Origin: a phage
Direction: 5' to 3' (one strand)
Assembly: GCA_027262695.1 (NCBI GenBank)
Contig: GCA_027262695.1_4722.1
DNA length: 64,000 nt
The position numbers and the translations under genes are program-made. Each line of letters opens with the position of its first letter. The stretch's first letter is position 1. The notes below the pieces were generated by a model. It saw only the letters and a list, made by a program, of their open reading frames with translations. It was not told the DNA's origin and ran no database searches. Positions 1,521-11,639 of this stretch are shown in pieces.

Positions 1521-1859
1521 TTAGAACCAGAGTTCTTTCATGAAGTAGGCTTCCATATCGTAAATAAGCCACTCATCTGGGATTTCTAAAGGATCGTCTT
1601 CGGTTAAGGTGAGCATGTGCAGGGCGAACGCACGCTTAATATCTTCCAACAGCTTATCATCACCGTAACCTTCGGGTAGTTTACGGTCAACCAGCTGGGT
1701 TTGTTTATAGACATCGCGGAACGCTTCAGGATTATGTTTATCCATCGGGAATTGTTCAGCAGCCTGAACCATCGAAAGCGTCCAGCTTACAACATTGTAA
1801 CGCTCACCGTTAATTTCACTGAACTTATCATCGATTAAACAGATTTGTTGTATATTCAT
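1521..1859 (-). CDS. hypothetical protein (112 aa)
   Basis: ORF on the dominant coding strand; ATGA start/stop overlap with the upstream gene suggests translational coupling. No recognisable motif. Confidence 0.5.
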   Translation of the reverse strand: MNIQQICLIDDKFSEINGERYNVVSWTLSMVQAAEQFPMDKHNPEAFRDVYKQTQLVDRKLPEGYGDDKLLEDIKRAFALHMLTLTEDDPLEIPDEWLIYDMEAYFMKELWF

Positions 1860-2797: not shown

Positions 2798-5059
2798 TTA
2801 CAATTCGAAATCTTCATCGATAACGCGTTGGGTTAGCACCTTGTCGCTGAAGAACTCCACCTTACGTTGATGGTATTTCCGATGTGCTTCAATCGACGTA
2901 CACACCAGATACCAGAACGTGGGTGTCATACCCTCGAACTTCCCTTTCAGCTGACGTAGTCGACCTAACACCTGAATGTTACCAGTTCTCGACCCCATCG
3001 CTAACGTCATGAACGTCATCACCAAGTCAGGAAGATCGATTCCTGTACCAGCCGATTTCACCGTTGTCACACTGATATCATTATCCAGTAACACCATGAA
3101 ATCTTCTTCAGCGGTATAAGGACCTATCTCCAACTCAGGGATACGTTCACTTAAGTAATGCGATAACGACTTGCACATATCAACGGTTGCACAATACACC
3201 AACATCTTCATGCCTTCCTGATATTGGTTCATGAAACCTTTGATAATAACCGTATAGATAAAGTTGAAATAGGCGAGTTTGAGTTGCTTATTCTTCATGA
3301 TAGACTGTTCGAATACCGTGTGAGAATAAGAACCTCCAAAGCCTTTGTATCGGACTTTATCCGTACTGCGTAGTCGATACGTCACCGCATTTACCGCGAT
3401 GTATTTCTTGTATTCACATTTCGCATAACGTGCTTCTTTCGGATACATCAAATACAGCATCCGCTCGATGAACGGATCGTCAGACACCGCCGTTGCCGAC
3501 AGATAAATGATTTCCGGAATATTCGCGTAACACTTCACTTTGAACAAGAAATGCAGAGCTTCGTGACATTCATCGTGGATTAACAATCCAATGCCTGTTT
3601 TCTCCCAGAACTCGACTGGATGGAAAACATAAGGTGCGACACAGTTGTTCTTTTCATAATCGGTTATATAACGCTGAAACATGTTCAGTGAGAATAACGC
3701 AATTTTGAAATCCAACTCACCTTGTTCTACCAGCGTCTGAAATTCCAACATGCTGTAACGAGGAATGTCGGGATGCGGTGGGTCAGACTGGGCTGTACCA
3801 CGTATCTCGATAACATCACCTGGTTCCATACCGAAGAAACTTAGCAGTGAGCTACGCCATCCAGGCATGTACCTCGGTGACAGAATGATGCCCGTCCGTA
3901 CACCACGTCGGAAGGTGATCTCCTGCGACATTGCGGTGTTGTGCGTGACGATATGGTCTTTAATAACATAAAGGCTTTCGTCGTTGTCCACCGTGATGCA
4001 ACGTGCCTTCGCTTTCACCGTCGGCACGATGCCGCCAATCGCTAAACCAGGAAGCGTGTTAACGGGAAGATCATCTGGAATCTCAATGCCGTCAGGAATA
4101 AGCTTAAGCAAATCGGAATGGTAAATTAATGTCTCCATCGTGTAACTATTGATGGGGCATTTATACGCGATTCCCCCTAACCGATAAGCCAACTCCCAGA
4201 CCTCGGTCATTATCTGCGAATCGGTGGTTCTGACCGCAAGGTGAGCCCACCCTTCTTCAACACGCAGTACGCAACGATCTTTGATGAGTTCTCTGAAACG
4301 ATCAAGACCCACGAGTTCTTTCGGTTCGTAAAGTCGGATTCTTACCGGACGAGATCGTGACGATCTGTCATTAAGACGTTCCATGATTTCACTCGTGCTG
4401 AGCACCTTGTCAGGATCCGTGCATTGCCAGAGATGATCACCACACGCTTCAACCATTCGTCCATCTTCAAAGAAGACAGCGTAAAGCTGAATATCGTCAT
4501 GATCAAAGATAGCAGTTACGTTCGTCGGTAAACCATCCGCGCCGATGACCTCATCACCCACCTGGAGCTCACCAATCGGCTTCCAACCGCTTGGAACCTT
4601 AACGGGTGTATGGAGAGCCAATGCTTTCCCAGACCCCGTGCCTGCGGTGTTTAGGCTCATTCTGAAAGGGGTATCCTTACCCCCATCCATGTACTCCAAC
4701 CATTCTTGCTGATCTTCACGCCACGGAAACTTCCAGTTCTTCACAAACTCCACTTCCTTACCTGGAACCGGATCGTGGTAAACGATTTCCAACCACTCCT
4801 TTCGAATTCCTCGAGAAAAGATAAAATCCAAAAACGACTTCAGCTGTTCACGAAGTAAGTAGACCTCGCTATAATCGCTTCTTGCTGCGGCGTAGGTGTT
4901 GATGGTATCGGTGACCATTCTCCGTGTACGAGGGTCGCGTCGTTTCCGTAGATGCAAACAACGGTCTCGAAGGTAATGGCCAATCAAATGGGCAAATCGA
5001 AGTCCGTATCCGCTCAGCTTCATGCCATGCGAGAAGACGTCGATACGAGCTAACTTCAT
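2798..5059 (-). CDS. SF2 DExH-box helicase precursor containing an intein
   Basis: Walker A 'AGTGSGK' followed after a 229 aa insertion by 'T'; motif II 'LLIHDECHEA', motif III 'LSAT', motif VI-like 'QVLGRLRQ'. The Arg-rich N-terminal 47 aa look non-coding-like, so the true start may be the internal Met near 4918. Confidence 0.75.
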   Translation of the reverse strand: MKLARIDVFSHGMKLSGYGLRFAHLIGHYLRDRCLHLRKRRDPRTRRMVTDTINTYAAARSDYSEVYLLREQLKSFLDFIFSRGIRKEWLEIVYHDPVPGKEVEFVKNWKFPWREDQQEWLEYMDGGKDTPFRMSLNTAGTGSGKALALHTPVKVPSGWKPIGELQVGDEVIGADGLPTNVTAIFDHDDIQLYAVFFEDGRMVEACGDHLWQCTDPDKVLSTSEIMERLNDRSSRSRPVRIRLYEPKELVGLDRFRELIKDRCVLRVEEGWAHLAVRTTDSQIMTEVWELAYRLGGIAYKCPINSYTMETLIYHSDLLKLIPDGIEIPDDLPVNTLPGLAIGGIVPTVKAKARCITVDNDESLYVIKDHIVTHNTAMSQEITFRRGVRTGIILSPRYMPGWRSSLLSFFGMEPGDVIEIRGTAQSDPPHPDIPRYSMLEFQTLVEQGELDFKIALFSLNMFQRYITDYEKNNCVAPYVFHPVEFWEKTGIGLLIHDECHEALHFLFKVKCYANIPEIIYLSATAVSDDPFIERMLYLMYPKEARYAKCEYKKYIAVNAVTYRLRSTDKVRYKGFGGSYSHTVFEQSIMKNKQLKLAYFNFIYTVIIKGFMNQYQEGMKMLVYCATVDMCKSLSHYLSERIPELEIGPYTAEEDFMVLLDNDISVTTVKSAGTGIDLPDLVMTFMTLAMGSRTGNIQVLGRLRQLKGKFEGMTPTFWYLVCTSIEAHRKYHQRKVEFFSDKVLTQRVIDEDFEL
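3938..4624 (-). mobile_element. Intein (229 aa, class-3-like: Ala1, block B Trp, block F Cys, block G Thr-His-Asn, +1 Thr) in the helicase P-loop
   Basis: Insertion lies exactly between Lys and Thr of GSGK|T. N-terminal block A-like 'ALALHTPV...GEL', block B-like 'EACGDHLW', block F-like 'ARCITVDNDESLYV', C-terminal 'IVTHN' then Thr. Removing it restores a canonical 'GTGSGKT' P-loop. No endonuclease-sized domain is evident. Confidence 0.6.
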
Positions 5060-7095
5060 AACGTGATTACATCCTCCGGTTTAGGTTCTTTACGCGGTAG
5101 AAGCATGTAGTCGATCGGATGATCTGGCTTCATGGTTGGGATATAACTGTTCGGGTTTTGGAACGCATCCAGTTGCTCTTGGTGAGCGAACTTCATACTC
5201 AAGGAGCGCATGTTCATGTTCTTCTTGAAGGTACTGAAATAACGAGTCGTTCCCTGTTTCGGCATGCGGTAATCTTTCGTGTGTGGTGAACGAATCATAC
5301 TCGCGTAGAGAATAACGTCCAGATGCGATAGATTCATTCGTAAACGTTGCGCACACAGACGATGCCAATAATACAGTACGTTGGCTACTTCTTCTGGTGT
5401 CGCTTCATCTTCCGAAAGGAATCCTGCACTGAACGAACCTTTCCCGAATTTGAATTCACGTTCGATTTCTTTTGCGTATTCCATCATGTTTTTATGGATG
5501 AGTGGCATCTGGAATAGCGTCCGTGAATTGTCCCAATGTTTCAAGTCGAAGATCACAATCCCGTCTGCTGTTACTTCCCAGCTATGGCGTTTGAGATAAC
5601 GGATAAACGCTTTGCTTGGTACAACAGGACGTCCACAGAAATCGAAATTGACTTTGAGTTTACGGTAGCTCTCATCTTTCCTGTCGTAAATCTCCATATC
5701 GCAAAGCGTCATGTTGAACAGACGTTGCGGGATAAGCGAACTGATCTCTTCCGCTTCAGCTACATCGTACAACATGTTCGCCAGACCGAGTTTCATCTTA
5801 ATCAGCACGTGTTTGCCTTTCAGCTCACGGGCTAATTTGATGTCGTTCATGTTCTGGCTGTAACGAAGGATATGTTGATATTCCGGCGGGATTGGTGACG
5901 TAGACACGGTGGACGAACCATCGTGATGTTTGGTCGAAAGAATGTTCTGGGTAACCTGTTGTGAACCTGTACGTGCTGAGCAGTCTCCGATGTTGTCGGT
6001 CAATGCAAAGTTATGGCTTAATTCACCATAGCACGTTGTACAGACACCAGCAGGATCAGAATGATGACAGTAACAAACGGAACGCATGTTCACAATGGTA
6101 CCGATCAATTCTTTCATGTGAGGCTGTATCGACAACAGCGAACCATCTTCACGTAAGATGAATCGACCGTGGAAACCTTTAAGATCGGTTTCATCACGTA
6201 TCGGCATCGGAATGGTTTCTCTGCTTCCACAGTCACCAGGGTGCAGACGCTGTACAACCGCCGTTGCGATTTGCAGCTCACGTCCGAAATATTCTGACTT
6301 CTTAATCTGCTCCTTGTTGAACAACAATGATTTTGCCGCAGAGCGACTTTCTTTCAAACTGTCTGGAAGCGAGATCAAGCCTGCTGCATACGACCGCATC
6401 ACTGGGTCACGGAAGATCTCCGAGTTGATATCGGTTAAGAAGCCACGCATCCCAATACACTGCAATACCTGTCCGATCGATACGTGTTCGGTTCTTACCG
6501 CACGTGCGATAGGGTTGGCATGCAATGTTTTATCGGTACTTAAAACTTTTGTTAGTTTCTTGTATGCGCTCTCAATACCTTCGCGGGTGGGTTCCGCTTC
6601 AGCGATGATTTTCTTCACTTCGGGATGTACGGTAATCTGATAAAAATCATCCGCACAGATGGTCGTTACGTATTCCTCCAACGCATACGTAAAGAAGTTA
6701 TAAACGTGGTTAAACATATCGAACAACGCTTTCCAGAGAACCTCACGATTCTCTTGCGGATACGCATACATGCATTGACGATAGGCTGCGCTTTGTAATG
6801 CAACGGAAGAACCTGCCGTAAACTTGCGTTTATCCACCAGGTTCTCTTTCGTTAACGGTGTCTCAGGATACATGCGATGTAAAGACCAATGCATGTAGCT
6901 AAAGAAAATGCGTCGCGCACGCAATTCATGAACACCATCGTCCATCTCGATATACACACGGTCATTAGGCTGTGCCCACTCGAACACCTCATCAACCGGC
7001 CAATGCATAAGCTCTCGCGCCCGTACACGGCGTTTCGTGGTGATCGTCTGTACTGTATTCATTATTTTTACTTTCCGATTAAGTGGTTTTATCAT
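5056..7095 (-). CDS. Multisubunit RNA polymerase beta-prime subunit, C-terminal fragment
   Basis: 'GMRG' (cf. E. coli beta-prime QLAGMRGLM); zinc-site-like 'RSVCYCHHSDPAGVCTTCYG' (cf. RSVVSCDTDFGVCAHCYG); trigger-loop-like 'GDCSARTGSQQVTQNILSTKHHDG'. Alternative start at Met12 (7060-7062). Confidence 0.7.
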   Translation of the reverse strand: MIKPLNRKVKIMNTVQTITTKRRVRARELMHWPVDEVFEWAQPNDRVYIEMDDGVHELRARRIFFSYMHWSLHRMYPETPLTKENLVDKRKFTAGSSVALQSAAYRQCMYAYPQENREVLWKALFDMFNHVYNFFTYALEEYVTTICADDFYQITVHPEVKKIIAEAEPTREGIESAYKKLTKVLSTDKTLHANPIARAVRTEHVSIGQVLQCIGMRGFLTDINSEIFRDPVMRSYAAGLISLPDSLKESRSAAKSLLFNKEQIKKSEYFGRELQIATAVVQRLHPGDCGSRETIPMPIRDETDLKGFHGRFILREDGSLLSIQPHMKELIGTIVNMRSVCYCHHSDPAGVCTTCYGELSHNFALTDNIGDCSARTGSQQVTQNILSTKHHDGSSTVSTSPIPPEYQHILRYSQNMNDIKLARELKGKHVLIKMKLGLANMLYDVAEAEEISSLIPQRLFNMTLCDMEIYDRKDESYRKLKVNFDFCGRPVVPSKAFIRYLKRHSWEVTADGIVIFDLKHWDNSRTLFQMPLIHKNMMEYAKEIEREFKFGKGSFSAGFLSEDEATPEEVANVLYYWHRLCAQRLRMNLSHLDVILYASMIRSPHTKDYRMPKQGTTRYFSTFKKNMNMRSLSMKFAHQEQLDAFQNPNSYIPTMKPDHPIDYMLLPRKEPKPEDVITL

Positions 7096-7170
7096 ACAGT
7101 GTATTCATTCCGTTGGAATTTACTCCGGGAGTCCCTTCCCTTAGGTTATATAGGTGTTAATATATCTCGG

Positions 7171-7656
7171 TTATCCTGCTTTCTTCTGAAGGCTATAAGG
7201 ATCCATCGCATCGGAGCGGTCGGCAACGATGGTAAGAATGAAGCCTTTTATCTGTCTCACTTCGGTAACCCGGAGTCCCCTATCGTTACGATAAACATTT
7301 TCTTCGCCGACCAGTTTTGGTCGAATAACATAAACCCCATCAACGAACGGAAACGTTGAATACGGATAAATACCAATACGAATAATATTCGGATGATCAC
7401 CTCGAGGGTCACGTCCAAACACATCAACTCTACCGTAAATCGTGCCGTCCGCACCTTCCACTTCAATAAGGTCGTTGCGAATATCCTGAAACAGTTGTTC
7501 TAAGGTCTCTGCGGGATATGTATAAGCGACGCCTAATGCAACATCCTCAATGGTCTTAACGCTAAATCCGTTAAGCCAAATAATCCGATCATCTGTCCAT
7601 GTTTCTTCATACGCTGTTAATCCGTCGCCGTATATGTTGGCGTGTGCTATCTCCAT
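7171..7656 (-). CDS. hypothetical protein (161 aa)
   Basis: ORF on the dominant strand; no recognisable motif. Confidence 0.5.
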   Translation of the reverse strand: MEIAHANIYGDGLTAYEETWTDDRIIWLNGFSVKTIEDVALGVAYTYPAETLEQLFQDIRNDLIEVEGADGTIYGRVDVFGRDPRGDHPNIIRIGIYPYSTFPFVDGVYVIRPKLVGEENVYRNDRGLRVTEVRQIKGFILTIVADRSDAMDPYSLQKKAG

Positions 7657-7768
7657 AATCTCATTTCCTCTTCTCTGTTAGGATAAATGACATGCTGGAT
7701 AACGTTGCCTTTGCATATATTGCTTTATTTCCGTCAGAAATAACGGAAAATAAAAACAACGGCATAAA

Positions 7769-7799
7769 CCCCTCCCACCACCACATGGGAGAGGGAGGG
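7769..7799 (-). terminator. Intrinsic terminator hairpin (CCCCTCCC / GGGAGGG)
   Basis: GC-rich inverted repeat just downstream of the minus-strand gene ending at 7806, with an A-rich tract at lower coordinates on the plus strand (U-run for the minus transcript). Confidence 0.5.
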
Positions 7800-7805
7800 T
7801 GTATG

Positions 7806-8168
7806 TTATTCTACATTATCTTCTACGGCTTCGGATTCATCCGCTTCTGCGAAGCTTTCCTGAACCGCAGTGGTATCCCAGTTCGCTGCGTAATCAGCCA
7901 TGGCTTCGCGCAGCGCTTCTTCACCCGCATCACCAGCCAGGTCAAGTACAACCAACCCTTGTGCGACGTTCTGCGCTACGGTATCGATAACCGTTGCATC
8001 CTCTTCAAAGCTACGTACCGGTTCAATGGTACCAACATCAACAGCGTAGTTCGTGGTTGCGGTAAGGACAGCAACCTGTAATGCGTTGCTGTCTTCGTCA
8101 TGAAGTGCTGCTTCAATACCGATTGGACGGGCCAGTTCTTGCAGTGTCAATTTACGAATTAAGTTCAT
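7806..8168 (-). CDS. small highly acidic protein (120 aa)
   Basis: Asp/Glu-rich throughout, e.g. 'EADESEAVEDNVE' at the C-terminus; no catalytic motif. Confidence 0.5.
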   Translation of the reverse strand: MNLIRKLTLQELARPIGIEAALHDEDSNALQVAVLTATTNYAVDVGTIEPVRSFEEDATVIDTVAQNVAQGLVVLDLAGDAGEEALREAMADYAANWDTTAVQESFAEADESEAVEDNVE

Positions 8169-8191
8169 TATGTCTTTTCCTCAGGTGAATG

Positions 8192-8620
8192 TTAGCAATC
8201 GTTTAAAACTTTTTCGATACGATGGTTGACAAGCTCATTGAACGACTCTTCTGCTTGTTCGATAATTTCATCAACGTCAATATCTAATCGTTGGGGTTGG
8301 ATGACGTGCTCTTTCATGGTTTCCAGCCAGTATTCGGCTTTAATCATGACGTTAACAACATGTTCAACCTGACTGCGTAGGTCGATAATCTGGCAATCAG
8401 GATTATTAATATCGATGACGTGTCCGTGGTGGTTGATAAACCCAAGCTTATTCGATGCTTTTACGGCATCGCGAGTAAGTTCTTGCAGGATTAACGCATT
8501 TACGTAATTCACTGCGACGGAACGATTTTCTTTATCACTCATACCAGGGATCCTCTTTAAGTGTTCACATTCTAGTGTTAAGCAGTTAAAATAAACCGTT
8601 CCTTTAATCAGCATAAACAT
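8192..8620 (-). CDS. hypothetical protein (142 aa)
   Basis: ORF on the dominant strand; terminator-like hairpin downstream. Confidence 0.5.
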   Translation of the reverse strand: MFMLIKGTVYFNCLTLECEHLKRIPGMSDKENRSVAVNYVNALILQELTRDAVKASNKLGFINHHGHVIDINNPDCQIIDLRSQVEHVVNVMIKAEYWLETMKEHVIQPQRLDIDVDEIIEQAEESFNELVNHRIEKVLNDC

Positions 8621-8649
8621 CCTCCTCCCACCACACGGGCAGGAGGAGG
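8621..8649 (-). terminator. Intrinsic terminator hairpin (CCTCCTCC / GGAGGAGG)
   Basis: GC-rich inverted repeat immediately downstream of the minus-strand gene ending at 8661. Confidence 0.5.
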
Positions 8650-8660
8650 CGTAATATGCA

Positions 8661-9098
8661 TCAGAAAGGAGTACGGTTCTTATATTCGAATAGTGTCTGG
8701 AGGACGCATCGCGTTAACGCGTTTTGTAATTCGATACGTCCTTGTTCCCCTAACAGATCCAACACCATCATCCCTTTTGCTGTTTTCTCTGCCACTTCTT
8801 CACAAATCCGTAAATTGTACACATCATCGTCGTCAAGCTCCTTACGACGGTCAGAGCTGAAACGCATCAGCTCACCTTGACTATCACGAACATCAGCGAA
8901 TGCTTCATAGGCTGCATCAATGTTCGCAGAACGCGTCAAACCCTCCGCTTCGCGCCATTCTCGGTATGTACCATCAAGCGTTTGTTCCTCGCCTGAGGTT
9001 GTTGATTCACTGTTGGTGGTTGGGCGAATTAAATGGGGTGTTATCATCGCTATTACGCTATCGTAATGCTCCATCGTATACCTCGTTAGCTTTCGCAA
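8661..9098 (-). CDS. hypothetical protein (145 aa)
   Basis: ORF on the dominant strand; overlaps the upstream gene end by 13 nt. Confidence 0.5.
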   Translation of the reverse strand: MRKLTRYTMEHYDSVIAMITPHLIRPTTNSESTTSGEEQTLDGTYREWREAEGLTRSANIDAAYEAFADVRDSQGELMRFSSDRRKELDDDDVYNLRICEEVAEKTAKGMMVLDLLGEQGRIELQNALTRCVLQTLFEYKNRTPF

Positions 9099-11254
9099 TC
9101 ATCAGCATCGATGATCTGACCACCAGCAACGTTCAACTGATGATACAGAATCCTCAACGCACGGTTACCCCCAATGGGATACTTCTCGAAGTTGGTCGCA
9201 ATCGGAATCGCAGAGGGTTTGTCGGTTGCATAGATGCTTTCCGTGATGCTATCCACCTGTTTCGGGTTGTTCGCGTAATCCATGAATACGCTTGCGAACC
9301 ATCCACCGGCAAAGGCGGTGACTTCGCGATGCTCGGATTCACCACAATAACGTGTCGGTTGCTCTTTACCCGGCGAACTGTACTTATCACTGTTGCTGAG
9401 TTTCGACGGCAAACCGTGTGCTTGCAGTTTAGGAATACCCACCGCAGACCAATCGTTCGCTGTCTTCTCCAACATCATGATGTATGTATCACCAATCGCA
9501 ATATCGTTCTTGGTGGTTCGCCATTGGCCAGAACGTCCACGATAGCGTACTGGACCTTTCTTCAACGGGAACTCTCGGATTAGGTTCTCCATACGTTCCG
9601 AACCTGCTGCGATACTGTCTGTCGGAATATAGACTTCCGTACCGTGGCGTTGTACGTAACGGAGATGATCCCATTTATCTTCGTCTGTGATACAGTGCTT
9701 CTCAACAACCTGTTCCACAAACTCAGGACTAACAATATAGTAGTAACGCATCAATGTGTTCCATGCGGTTTCCAGATCGCCTGCATCCATTACTGGTTTC
9801 AGTTCACGCATAATCTGATCACCAACACCGTTGATATAAGGTGCGTTAACACGGCTTAAACTCATCCTTTTAATTACCGTGCTGTCGTCGAACATAAAGT
9901 CCGCGACATTCCCCCATTGGTCTACGGGCATCTCGTCATCTTCCATGATATCCGTTACGACGAATTTATCACCTGCCATACCGGTAAATTTAAATCCGAT
10001 ACCCGGGACTACATCGTAGGTATACGTGATAGTCACACGCCAGTCGTCAAGATTCTCCTTACGGTAATCACGGGTTGGCAACACATGACGTAGCTGACCG
10101 TTCGGATTGCGAATATCGATACCGTGCTCAGCATCAGCGAGGTTCAACCACCACATCACCGTCTGATGATGTCTGATGGGTGTACCAGCACGTTCACGTT
10201 CGTATTTACGCACCGCATCCTGAATACGGGTATACAGCAGACCGATGGCGTTCTCATATTTCAGGAATTGACGATACGGCGGACGCATCTTCTCTTCCAT
10301 CATAATCGCACGCTCACGGGCTTGACGTCCAGAACGACGATGGCGATCACTAACCACATCGATATCCGTCACACGCGCATTCGGTTCTGCGTAGGTAAGG
10401 TCATCGTAAACGTAGTCGACACGCTGCAGGTTGCAGGTCATCATGTCGACGACGCTCAGAATCGGATCGATTTCACGGGTTGCTGCTAACAGACCATCTT
10501 TACGAATACGTTCACCGTTCTCCGGGATTGCCTGATAGACCTCATCGTCGCCGTAGAGATTAATCGGATACCTCGACTTACCTGACGTGATCGTCCGTTT
10601 CTCGATACCGGTACTGGTGAAGTGTTTCAGTACGCCACGACGGGCAACACCCCCATCCTCAATACATTGATAGAAACTCCCAAAACACACCTTGCAATCA
10701 CGTCCGTAGCCCCACTCACGCGTTTCTTGATTGATCGCCGGGCTTTCCATCAAACGAGAGTATCGAGGTACGATCTGGCCTCGACGAAGGGAATGGAACA
10801 AATTGGTGGGTCGAAAACGGAAACCGTACTGCTGATGCATGATGTGATGCTCGGGCACTTCAAGCAAGCGCAGCTCATGGCGGTTACCATCTTCTTGGTT
10901 TTCATACAGCACGTAATGCATCGTGTTTGTCTTGATGCTATTCGCGGTATGCCCAGGTTGAAAACGTGGGATGATATCTATGACGCGAGATTCAACGGGG
11001 AATTCTACCGACCATGTATTCTGACCATACTGGTATTCAATCCCCGTCGTTAATCGGGACGGCTTCGCATCTTTGATAACCAACGCTTGGCTAAGATGTC
11101 CACCAAACATCGCAGCGCGCTGTGCTGAGTTATAATGCAATAGCCCGTTAAGTCCAGTCCCTACACCCGTATACTCCTGTTTAATGGGAATGATTTTACC
11201 TTCAGCGATTGCCTGCTTCACAGATTCATAAAGAGGTTTTTCTTTATAATGCAT
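9086..11254 (-). CDS. Multisubunit RNA polymerase beta subunit, C-terminal fragment
   Basis: 'NSAQRAAMFGGHLSQALV' (cf. [16 protein letters not shown]), 'KFTGMAGDKFVVTDIMEDDEMPVDQWGNVADFMFD' (cf. [36 protein letters not shown]), 'RYCGESEHREVTAFAGG' (cf. RFGEMEVWALEAYGA). Start trimmed to the ATG at 11252-11254, preceded by a GGAAG RBS; the track start at 11419 would overlap a divergent plus-strand gene. Confidence 0.7.
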   Translation of the reverse strand: MHYKEKPLYESVKQAIAEGKIIPIKQEYTGVGTGLNGLLHYNSAQRAAMFGGHLSQALVIKDAKPSRLTTGIEYQYGQNTWSVEFPVESRVIDIIPRFQPGHTANSIKTNTMHYVLYENQEDGNRHELRLLEVPEHHIMHQQYGFRFRPTNLFHSLRRGQIVPRYSRLMESPAINQETREWGYGRDCKVCFGSFYQCIEDGGVARRGVLKHFTSTGIEKRTITSGKSRYPINLYGDDEVYQAIPENGERIRKDGLLAATREIDPILSVVDMMTCNLQRVDYVYDDLTYAEPNARVTDIDVVSDRHRRSGRQARERAIMMEEKMRPPYRQFLKYENAIGLLYTRIQDAVRKYERERAGTPIRHHQTVMWWLNLADAEHGIDIRNPNGQLRHVLPTRDYRKENLDDWRVTITYTYDVVPGIGFKFTGMAGDKFVVTDIMEDDEMPVDQWGNVADFMFDDSTVIKRMSLSRVNAPYINGVGDQIMRELKPVMDAGDLETAWNTLMRYYYIVSPEFVEQVVEKHCITDEDKWDHLRYVQRHGTEVYIPTDSIAAGSERMENLIREFPLKKGPVRYRGRSGQWRTTKNDIAIGDTYIMMLEKTANDWSAVGIPKLQAHGLPSKLSNSDKYSSPGKEQPTRYCGESEHREVTAFAGGWFASVFMDYANNPKQVDSITESIYATDKPSAIPIATNFEKYPIGGNRALRILYHQLNVAGGQIIDADDCES

Positions 11255-11285
11255 AGGACTTCCTATTATCGAATTGAGGTACGTC

Positions 11286-11639
11286 ATGTCTAATACGCCC
11301 CTGAACGACTTCCTTAAAACAAACCCAGAAGACCTCATCCACAACCTTGATTTCAGGAACGTTGTTGAGATGCATCTGGAATATTTCAAAAATGCCGGTT
11401 TGGTTTCTACGATAGACATACCACCCGAACGCGCCTACGAATTCGATGGTAACTTTTATGGATTATGTCGGGTTATGCTTGGCGAAGGCAGTGAACCTAT
11501 GCACTGGGTTACCCTAAGAATCAACGGTTATCGTGATCCTACGGAATACACCGCCGATGTCCTAACGATGAAGATTGTCGATTCAAGCGCCATCAACACG
11601 TTAAAACAGCAATATCGCACAATCCACTACAGCGCTTAA
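11286..11639 (+). CDS. hypothetical protein (117 aa)
   Basis: Plus-strand ORF with a GAGGT RBS and its own downstream hairpin terminator at 11645-11673; divergent from the RNAP beta gene. Confidence 0.45.
   Translation: MSNTPLNDFLKTNPEDLIHNLDFRNVVEMHLEYFKNAGLVSTIDIPPERAYEFDGNFYGLCRVMLGEGSEPMHWVTLRINGYRDPTEYTADVLTMKIVDSSAINTLKQQYRTIHYSA

Follow-up and report, generated by a model that had tools for sequence, protein, structure and literature searches.

Gene content and organization of the locus

The window, by which is meant the whole 64-kb stretch of DNA that was analysed, shows in this region 81% DNA identity to the Escherichia phage vB_EcoM_Goslar, a jumbo phage of the Chimalliviridae that forms a nucleus, and by its sequence it belongs to a Goslar-like chimallivirus. 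The ORF considered here is, by homology, the ortholog of Goslar gp168 (HOV27_gp168, YP_009820853.1), which is annotated as a hypothetical protein. The two inferred proteins have equal length and matching neighbour genes, and are 90% identical over their whole length and 99% identical over residues 1–100, the acidic tail being the sole difference noted between them, with a tail of the ESFAEADESEAVEDNVE type in the window and of the KTFDGSEEDCAEEDSIE type in Goslar (45% identity). The positions of all features are collected in Table 1.

Table 1. Features in and around the gp168 ortholog, with positions counted from the first nucleotide of the window.
Feature	Position	Strand	Remarks
nvRNAP beta'(2) gene	5056–7095		PHROG RNA polymerase match
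Island of five small genes, orthologs of gp166–gp170	7171–9074	minus	about 2 kb, between the two nvRNAP genes
T-rich tract	7736–7769	minus	beyond the hairpin of the gp168 ortholog
G+C-rich hairpin	7770–7799	minus	starts 7 nt past the stop codon of the gp168 ortholog
CDS of the acidic protein (gp168 ortholog), stop codon included	7806–8168	minus	ATG start, 120 aa; from the ORF list
Variable poly-acidic C-terminal tail, residues 101–120	7809–7868	minus	8 D/E, no K/R
Conserved core, residues 1–100, with invariant motif LTATTNYAVDVGTIE	7869–8168	minus	alignments, dN/dS
Shared module of 38 residues, residues 56–93, EDATVIDTVAQNVAQGLVVLDLAGDAGEEALREAMADY	7890–8003	minus	blastp
Shine-Dalgarno sequence GAGG	8179–8182	minus	10 nt before the ATG of the gp168 ortholog
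gp169 ortholog	8192–8542	minus	116 aa, immediately upstream of the gp168 ortholog
Second hairpin copy	8621–8649	minus	12 nt past the stop codon of the paralog; terminator-like match
gp170 ortholog, tandem paralog	8661–9074	minus	137 aa, pI 4.6, 16 K+R; blastp, hhalign
Shared module in the gp170 ortholog	8706–8819	minus	
nvRNAP beta(2) gene	9086–11419		PHROG RNA polymerase match

The labels of the two flanking genes as non-virion RNA polymerase (nvRNAP) subunits come also from the Goslar proteomics table and from homology to PhiKZ gp71–73 and to the RAY protein named nvRNAP beta subunit 2. PhiKZ (gp71–73 with gp74) and RAY (gp248 with gp249) have the beta(2) and beta'(2) genes side by side, and about 2 kb with the five small genes separates them in Goslar-like phages, indicating that the island is lineage-specific and accessory. 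The gp168 ortholog is probably co-transcribed with the gp169 ortholog, which has no counterpart in the divergent relative L002, and the initiation region of the gp168 ortholog resembles that of the gp166 ortholog (direct repeat D5). No relation to gp168 was found for gp158, gp162, gp166 or gp169.

The relationship between the gp168 and gp170 orthologs was detected with blastp over the shared module (E = 6e-6), and independently with the paralog of L002, which matches the gp168 ortholog of the window with E = 7e-5. The hhalign probability for the paralog pair rose from 23% to 63% with added sequence diversity, and no third copy of the module was found in a six-frame translation of the 64-kb window. 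The two genes have the module, the downstream hairpin, the strand and the island in common, but the gp170 ortholog is less acidic and evolves fast; it exists as two alleles that are about 55% identical, and its protein shows 56% identity to that of Goslar. In Goslar virions gp170 is present in about 3 copies per particle (10.64898/2026.04.21.720040).

Identity between the two hairpins is 84%, and each of them is conserved in Goslar. They are the only copies in the 64 kb, where 0.04 would be expected by chance. The module together with the homologous hairpins supports an old duplication of a unit made up of gene plus hairpin, and the strength of this reading, made from sequence comparison, is moderate and not conclusive. 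The region around the hairpin downstream of the gp168 ortholog (81 nt, positions 7735–7815) has a predicted RNA folding energy of -22.8 kcal/mol with z = -2.0, and a consensus terminator scan did not report this hairpin because its loop exceeds the limits of the scan. It is likely a terminator, an attenuator or a stabiliser of the RNA 3'-end. In Goslar, the RNA-seq reads per nucleotide amount to about 1.6 over gp168 and about 0.4 over gp167. Rfam gave no match over positions 7000–9300.

Composition, conservation and relatives of the protein

Among the 120 residues of the inferred 13-kDa protein there are 26 Asp and Glu (21.7%) and 5 Lys and Arg (4.2%), so that the net charge amounts to -21. 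With the EMBOSS pKa values a pI of 3.54 was calculated, and another routine returned 4.05, which is apparently its floor as T7 Ocr and three fragments of gp168 gave the identical figure. No other of the 85 listed ATG-started ORFs with 100 aa or more in the window has a pI or a K+R fraction as low as this ORF. T7 Ocr, with 117 aa, has a pI of 3.64; its net charge is -28 when residues are counted and -27.0 at pH 7, and it also ends in an acidic tail. The protein falls within the charge density applied here for DNA mimics, which is roughly 20–30% D+E and a pI below 4.5. An earlier note made from the DNA alone had described a strongly acidic protein of 120 aa with a composition like that of DNA mimics and anti-restriction proteins of phages and had proposed that the pI be calculated, and this description agrees with the size, pI and charge found here, all of them close to those of T7 Ocr. 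The same note was mistaken in recognising no hydrophobic core motif by eye, since 55 of the 120 residues (46%) are A, V, L, I, M, F or W, the GRAVY value is -0.06 as compared to -0.58 for T7 Ocr, and residues 1–100 are placed on the folded side of a charge-hydropathy plot. Residues 101–120 taken alone are located on the disordered side.

Codons 1–100 differ from those of Goslar by 38 synonymous and 2 non-synonymous changes, corresponding to a dS of 0.89 and a dN/dS of 0.01. The flanking nvRNAP genes have dN/dS values of 0.004 and 0.026 in the same comparison, and among the neighbours in the island the values are 0.059 for gp166 and 0.14 for gp169. The core of the protein is under extreme purifying selection, with a constraint equal to that on the RNA polymerase of the phage, and an invariant core of this kind implies a specific and conserved partner. 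Genes engaged in an arms race are usually fast-evolving. The low dN/dS, and the peptides of the Goslar ortholog in published mass spectrometry, show that the ORF is a real gene and not a chance ORF. The acidity of the tail is kept although its sequence is not: at least two tail types occur among the homologs, and in every homolog the final 23–28 residues contain 9–10 D/E and at most one basic residue. By sequence, the protein would consist of an invariant core, which is probably folded, and a tail that is variable in sequence and always acidic.

A word-indexed search of 5.8 billion proteins returned only matches with at least 87% identity, located on contigs about 240 kb long that come from assemblies of E. 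coli, Shigella and Salmonella and from metagenomes. When 1.84 billion representatives were searched exhaustively with HMMER, only two clusters were obtained, that of the protein itself and one represented by a protein of 126 aa (P0032) with 54% identity, which shares the acidic end described above. P0032 is encoded on a contig of 3.9 kb with the gene order gp172, nvRNAP beta(2) (65% identity), gp170-like and gp168-like, where gp169 is missing. All eight Goslar-like loci that were examined have a gene of the gp168 type, as has the divergent relative L002, and scans of IMG/VR and metagenome contigs added further Goslar-like genomes and no new lineage. One metagenome match (L014) was spurious, as it is located in a bacterial contig with high GC content. 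As far as these searches indicate, the gp168 family is an ORFan confined to the Goslar lineage of phages of E. coli, Shigella and Salmonella.

Pfam gave no family for the protein at E ≤ 1, which includes Ocr, PF12699 and DUF7941, and searches of Pfam, PHROGs, NCBIfam and PADLOC with the protein, P0032 and the neighbours yielded no family. The profiles for ArdA, ArdB/KlcA and other anti-restriction proteins in Pfam, PHROGs and PADLOC match neither the protein nor P0032, and blastp against T7 Ocr aligned 13 residues only, with E = 22. Profile searches against PDB sequences gave sub-threshold matches to unrelated alpha/beta enzymes, and these are regarded as noise because they changed whenever the profile was changed. 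An RraA-like fold was considered from matches to TIGR01935 (E = 0.02, scoring 14.7 bits where the cut-off is 123.8) and to PDB entry 1nxj (E = 1.4), and was rejected as both matches were lost once P0032 was included in the profile, being replaced by unrelated alpha/beta enzymes. AlphaFold2 reached a mean pLDDT of 37.7 with 23 sequences and of 40.2 with a de-duplicated alignment including P0032, and with pLDDT values of only about 40 or less no fold comparison is justified. In the literature no DNA mimic of nucleus-forming phages was found, and the virion paper cited below was the only study found to deal with gp168.

Virion association and expression of the Goslar ortholog

All expression and proteomic data come from Goslar, the protein of which is 90% identical, and not from the phage of the window. 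In CsCl-purified Goslar virions gp168 was estimated at about 219 copies per particle (range 146–344), with 8 peptides covering 50% of the sequence (10.64898/2026.04.21.720040); the estimate stems from a single preparation and one peptide contributes 228,000 of the 301,000 area units. It is among ten virion-associated proteins of more than 200 copies that are absent from the model and for which neither sequence nor AlphaFold 3 gave a function (10.64898/2026.04.21.720040). The same preparation contained about 126 copies of chimallin, about 171 of PhuZ and about 78 of ChmC, which were attributed by the authors to co-purifying fragments of the phage nucleus and PhuZ filaments, while the nvRNAP subunits were found at 0–0.6 copies and gp166 at about 1 copy per virion (10.64898/2026.04.21.720040). 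The GFP-fusion assays for packaging and injection in that study covered gp60, gp61, gp208 and gp209 (10.64898/2026.04.21.720040).

In whole-cell TMT proteomics at 110 min post infection the intensity is 8.5e6 for gp168, 1.9e9 for chimallin and 7.2e8 for PhuZ (10.1101/2023.09.22.559000, Table S4). A recovery ratio was calculated by dividing the copies in the virion preparation by the TMT intensity per Da that was measured in whole cells at 110 min. The ratio relative to chimallin is about 70 for gp168, a value that mixes two experiments (LFQ and TMT) for a protein in which tryptic sites are few, so that it may be wrong by several-fold. The corresponding values are 1.8 for PhuZ, 1.9 for ChmC and 0.4 for gp166, and 7–20 for the packaged proteins gp53 and gp209 and the late, unmodelled high-copy proteins gp7 and gp88. 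The recovery of gp168 surpasses that of PhuZ 39-fold and that of gp166 about 180-fold, gp166 being a protein with whole-cell intensity and transcription class equal to those of gp168. Recovery above that of the shell and PhuZ fragments indicates that gp168 is not simply riding on them and that its carrier is most likely the virion. Two properties expected of packaged cargo, detection in purified virions and enrichment over whole cells, are accordingly found for the Goslar ortholog, the enrichment being a cross-dataset estimate, and the presence and specific enrichment of gp168 in purified Goslar virions are shown. That gp168 is an early protein of high abundance brought along as a contaminant, as the chimallin and PhuZ in the preparation had suggested, is no longer the leading explanation in view of its recovery of about 70 times that of chimallin. 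Two small proteins of the early programme, gp158 and gp162, are enriched to a similar degree as gp168.

The protein of the window has the sequences L-x-E at residues 9–11 and G-x-E at residues 17–19. A peptide starting with AALHDEDS, as would result from cleavage by a prohead protease after G-I-E (residue 19), is not among the peptides listed in the part of the Goslar table that was available.

Knockdown of ChmA (chimallin) halts Goslar at the stage of the EPI vesicle, where only the early programme of the virion RNA polymerase runs (10.1101/2023.09.20.558163). The log2 fold change of gp168 in knockdown over control is +0.84 to +1.12 (10.1101/2023.09.20.558163, Supplementary Table 2), similar to that of the chimallin, PhuZ and nvRNAP genes (10.1101/2023.09.20.558163). 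The genes for virion, packaged and injected proteins, namely the MCP gp41, gp53, gp58, gp60/61, gp208/209 and the vRNAP gene gp196, change by -3 to -6, and the unmodelled high-copy proteins gp7, gp22, gp23 and gp88 by -3.5 to -7 (10.1101/2023.09.20.558163). The transcripts of Goslar gp168 belong to the early, ChmA-independent programme, and the late or morphogenetic expression expected of packaged cargo is not seen for this gene. Every packaged or injected Goslar protein that was checked belongs to the late programme, which depends on the nucleus, and gp168 to the early one, which speaks against reading gp168 as packaged cargo.

Possible roles of gp168

The likeness to T7 Ocr in size, pI, net charge and acidic C-terminal tail, the transcription of the Goslar ortholog in the early programme and the location of the gene in a lineage-specific accessory island would all suit a free, cytoplasmic and early DNA mimic that is not packaged and acts against restriction enzymes or other DNA-binding defence enzymes, as T7 Ocr or ArdA do. 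The enrichment in virions about 180-fold above that of gp166 is unexpected of a free soluble inhibitor, and the whole-cell signal of gp168 lies about 200-fold below that of chimallin. Moreover, gp168 is much more hydrophobic than Ocr, it has no similarity to Ocr, ArdA or the anti-defence families in the searches of Pfam, PHROGs and PADLOC or, for Ocr, with blastp, and its core is nearly invariant (dN/dS 0.01) in a gene that is present in every relative examined. Chimalliviruses also shield their DNA from restriction already, by the EPI vesicle and the phage nucleus. We therefore regard a free mimic as improbable, and gp168 is more likely to be cargo of the particle than a free cytoplasmic anti-restriction mimic. 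Even lower is the probability that gp168 is an accessory factor of the nvRNAP. The gene is flanked by those of the beta'(2) and beta(2) subunits and is of the same transcription class, and acidic tails are found in accessory proteins of RNA polymerase such as the delta subunit of Gram-positive bacteria, but about 219 copies of gp168 per virion stand against the 0–0.6 copies of the nvRNAP subunits, the polymerase genes of PhiKZ and RAY adjoin with no such gene between them, and there are no homologs in the other chimalliviruses that have the same polymerase.

Two further readings accept that gp168 is found with the particle. It could be an early, non-packaged protein that acts elsewhere in the cell and adheres to the exterior of the particle, or to another assembly that is well recovered; filaments of DUF7941, membrane remnants or remnants of the EPI vesicle are candidate carriers. 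Transcription in the early programme, like that of non-virion proteins, is consistent with this, as are the similar enrichment of gp158 and gp162, likewise early and small, and the statement of the authors that the preparation also captures large non-virion assemblies (10.64898/2026.04.21.720040). However, the recovery is 37–70 fold over that of chimallin, PhuZ and ChmC and exceeds that of validated packaged proteins, so that a non-virion carrier would need a recovery at least equal to that of virions, and adherence is on the whole unlikely, if with some weight left to it. We consider it slightly less probable still that gp168 is a purely structural component of the head interior, a polyanionic filler that tunes packaging density, pressure or ejection and has no role after injection, which may be likened to T4's acidic internal peptides. 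A copy number in the hundreds per virion, the lack of a cryo-EM model for it, strong acidity and strong conservation would fit, but transcription in the early programme is atypical of head morphogenesis proteins, a mere filler has no need of 100 near-invariant residues, and the family is missing from other chimalliviruses that build similar heads.

The explanation that we favour, tentatively and at somewhat less than even chances, is a packaged 'first-responder' role for gp168 with electrostatics like those of Ocr, and most of its weight comes from the virion association. The protein would be carried in the virus particle in roughly 150–350 copies, most probably as loose cargo inside the capsid, as a protein with no place in the ordered cryo-EM model is probably internal to it. 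The near-invariant core, if folded, would bind a conserved partner, which may be a component of the head or the inner body, the eventual target, or both. Its charge of -21, together with the acidic and disordered tail, would prevent sticking to the packaged DNA and allow gp168 to exit with the genome at injection. In the first minutes of infection it might then occupy a basic surface that binds nucleic acids, in a mode of action resembling that of the packaged proteins IPI* of T4 and Dar of P1 with the addition of Ocr-like electrostatics, and transcription in the early programme by the virion RNA polymerase would top up the injected protein. The location inside the capsid, the injection and the electrostatic action are what we infer for this protein.

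In a more far-reaching version, which we hold to be a long shot, gp168 would be a packaged and co-injected nucleic-acid mimic, entering in about 200 copies with the genome and re-supplied by the very first transcripts. The role of such a mimic could be to neutralise a host sensor or nuclease that binds nucleic acids, or to guard the genome before any compartment of the phage is complete, and the guarding would be placed at the formation of the EPI vesicle and the transfer to the nucleus.

Among known systems, T7 Ocr (gp0.3) is expressed early, like gp168, and is not known as a virion protein; the gp168 ortholog differs from it by its virion enrichment, its far higher hydrophobicity and the lack of sequence similarity. 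T4 IPI* and P1 Dar are small or accessory, lineage-specific proteins that are present in tens to hundreds of copies in the head outside the ordered shell, are delivered with the DNA and act at time zero. The copy number and enrichment of gp168 fit this cargo pattern, but there is no sequence relation, and gp168 is transcribed early and is cargo only putatively. The inner-body proteins with PF12699 (PhiKZ gp93, Goslar gp58 and gp53) are capsid contents of high copy number that are invisible in cryo-EM, and several of them are injected (10.64898/2026.04.21.720040). They are unrelated to gp168 in size and sequence, their genes are late (log2 fold change about -3.7 to -4.2) whereas gp168 is early, and they occur throughout the chimalliviruses whereas gp168 is restricted to the Goslar lineage.

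The gene had been annotated before, and gp168 was flagged as virion-associated in a preprint of 2026 (10.64898/2026.04.21.720040). What is added here is the contrast between its early programme and its virion enrichment, the constrained core with a free-running acidic tail, the duplication of paralog plus hairpin and the context of the island. Nucleus-forming jumbo phages must survive from the injection of the DNA until their protective compartments are complete, and the proteins borne by the particle, most of them without known function, are the sole tools present at time zero. If gp168 is injected cargo, it would be a handle of tractable size (120 aa) on the earliest contact between host and phage, for which CRISPRi-ART knockdown and GFP-virion assays already exist in Goslar, and the content of the virion would not be restricted to the products of late genes. 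If it is a sticky contaminant, gp168 would be useful for the interpretation of virion proteomes. Should it be a co-injected mimic, the protein would have a novel fold and would be the first case of an Ocr-like countermeasure borne by the virion of a nucleus-forming phage, and gp168, gp158 and gp162 would constitute a class of virion cargo encoded by early genes.

The accessory island between the polymerase genes

In PhiKZ and RAY the genes for nvRNAP beta'(2) and nvRNAP beta(2) adjoin directly, while here five small genes lie between them, and this interval is a hotspot for accessory genes within a conserved core block. For both nvRNAP genes the mechanical ORFs begin further upstream than the Goslar annotation places the start (in beta(2), the equivalent of the Goslar start MHYKE is at position 11254 of the window), and these longer versions probably do not use the true start.

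The gp170 ortholog, the tandem paralog of the gp168 ortholog, occurs as two alleles with an identity of only about 55%, and genomes with differing alleles have flanking nvRNAP beta(2) genes that are 99–100% identical. The Goslar-like genome L008 has a gp168 identical to that of the window, yet carries the opposite gp170 allele, and together these comparisons indicate recombination or mosaicism within the island. Each of the two paralogs is followed by a G+C-rich hairpin of the CCCTCCC...GGGAGGG type. The two hairpins are homologous, with TTTATGC next after each, are the only copies in the 64 kb and are both kept in Goslar; they may act as a terminator, an attenuator or an RNA-stability element.

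Features of the island and the neighbouring genes
Feature	Coordinates	Strand	Remark
gp162 ortholog	1521-1859	-	small acidic protein, 112 aa
SF2 helicase gene (gp164 ortholog)	2798-5059	-	ORF
Insertion in helicase gene	3938-4621	-	228 aa, in frame; missing from Goslar
nvRNAP beta'(2) gene	5056-7095	-	mechanical ORF
Five small genes	7171-9074		between the two nvRNAP genes
Hairpin	7770-7799	-	3' of gp168 ortholog
Hairpin	8621-8649	-	3' of gp170 ortholog
gp170 ortholog	8661-9074	-	compared across loci L001 and L007-L013
nvRNAP beta(2) gene	9086-11419	-	mechanical ORF

A candidate intein in the helicase gene

The insertion in the helicase gene interrupts the Walker A motif (GTGSGK|...|T), starts with ALALHT and ends with IVTHN followed by T. 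These features make up the signature of an intein whose position 1 is Ala, and the insertion is a candidate intein. A Pfam search gave no match. The long form of the gene is also found in the Goslar-like genomes L008, L010 and L011.

Occurrence of related phages and virion-enriched early products

Assemblies that bear the labels Shigella sonnei, Shigella flexneri, E. coli O157 and Salmonella Enteritidis contain Goslar-like contigs of about 240 kb (labels from protein clusters P0001, P0012, P0013, P0015 and P0020 of the database searches), suggesting that clinical isolates often carry these jumbo phages or are sequenced together with them.

The gp162 ortholog, with 23 D+E and a pI of about 4.3, is a second small acidic protein of the window beside the gp168 ortholog, and no family was assigned to it. 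Goslar gp162 belongs to the early programme (log2FC about +0.4, ChmA knockdown over control) and is strongly enriched in the virion preparation, with about 127 copies and a recovery, relative to whole-cell intensity per Da, 47 times that of chimallin. Goslar gp158 behaves in the same way (39 times), and gp168, gp162 and gp158 together suggest a class of early-gene products that are enriched in virions.
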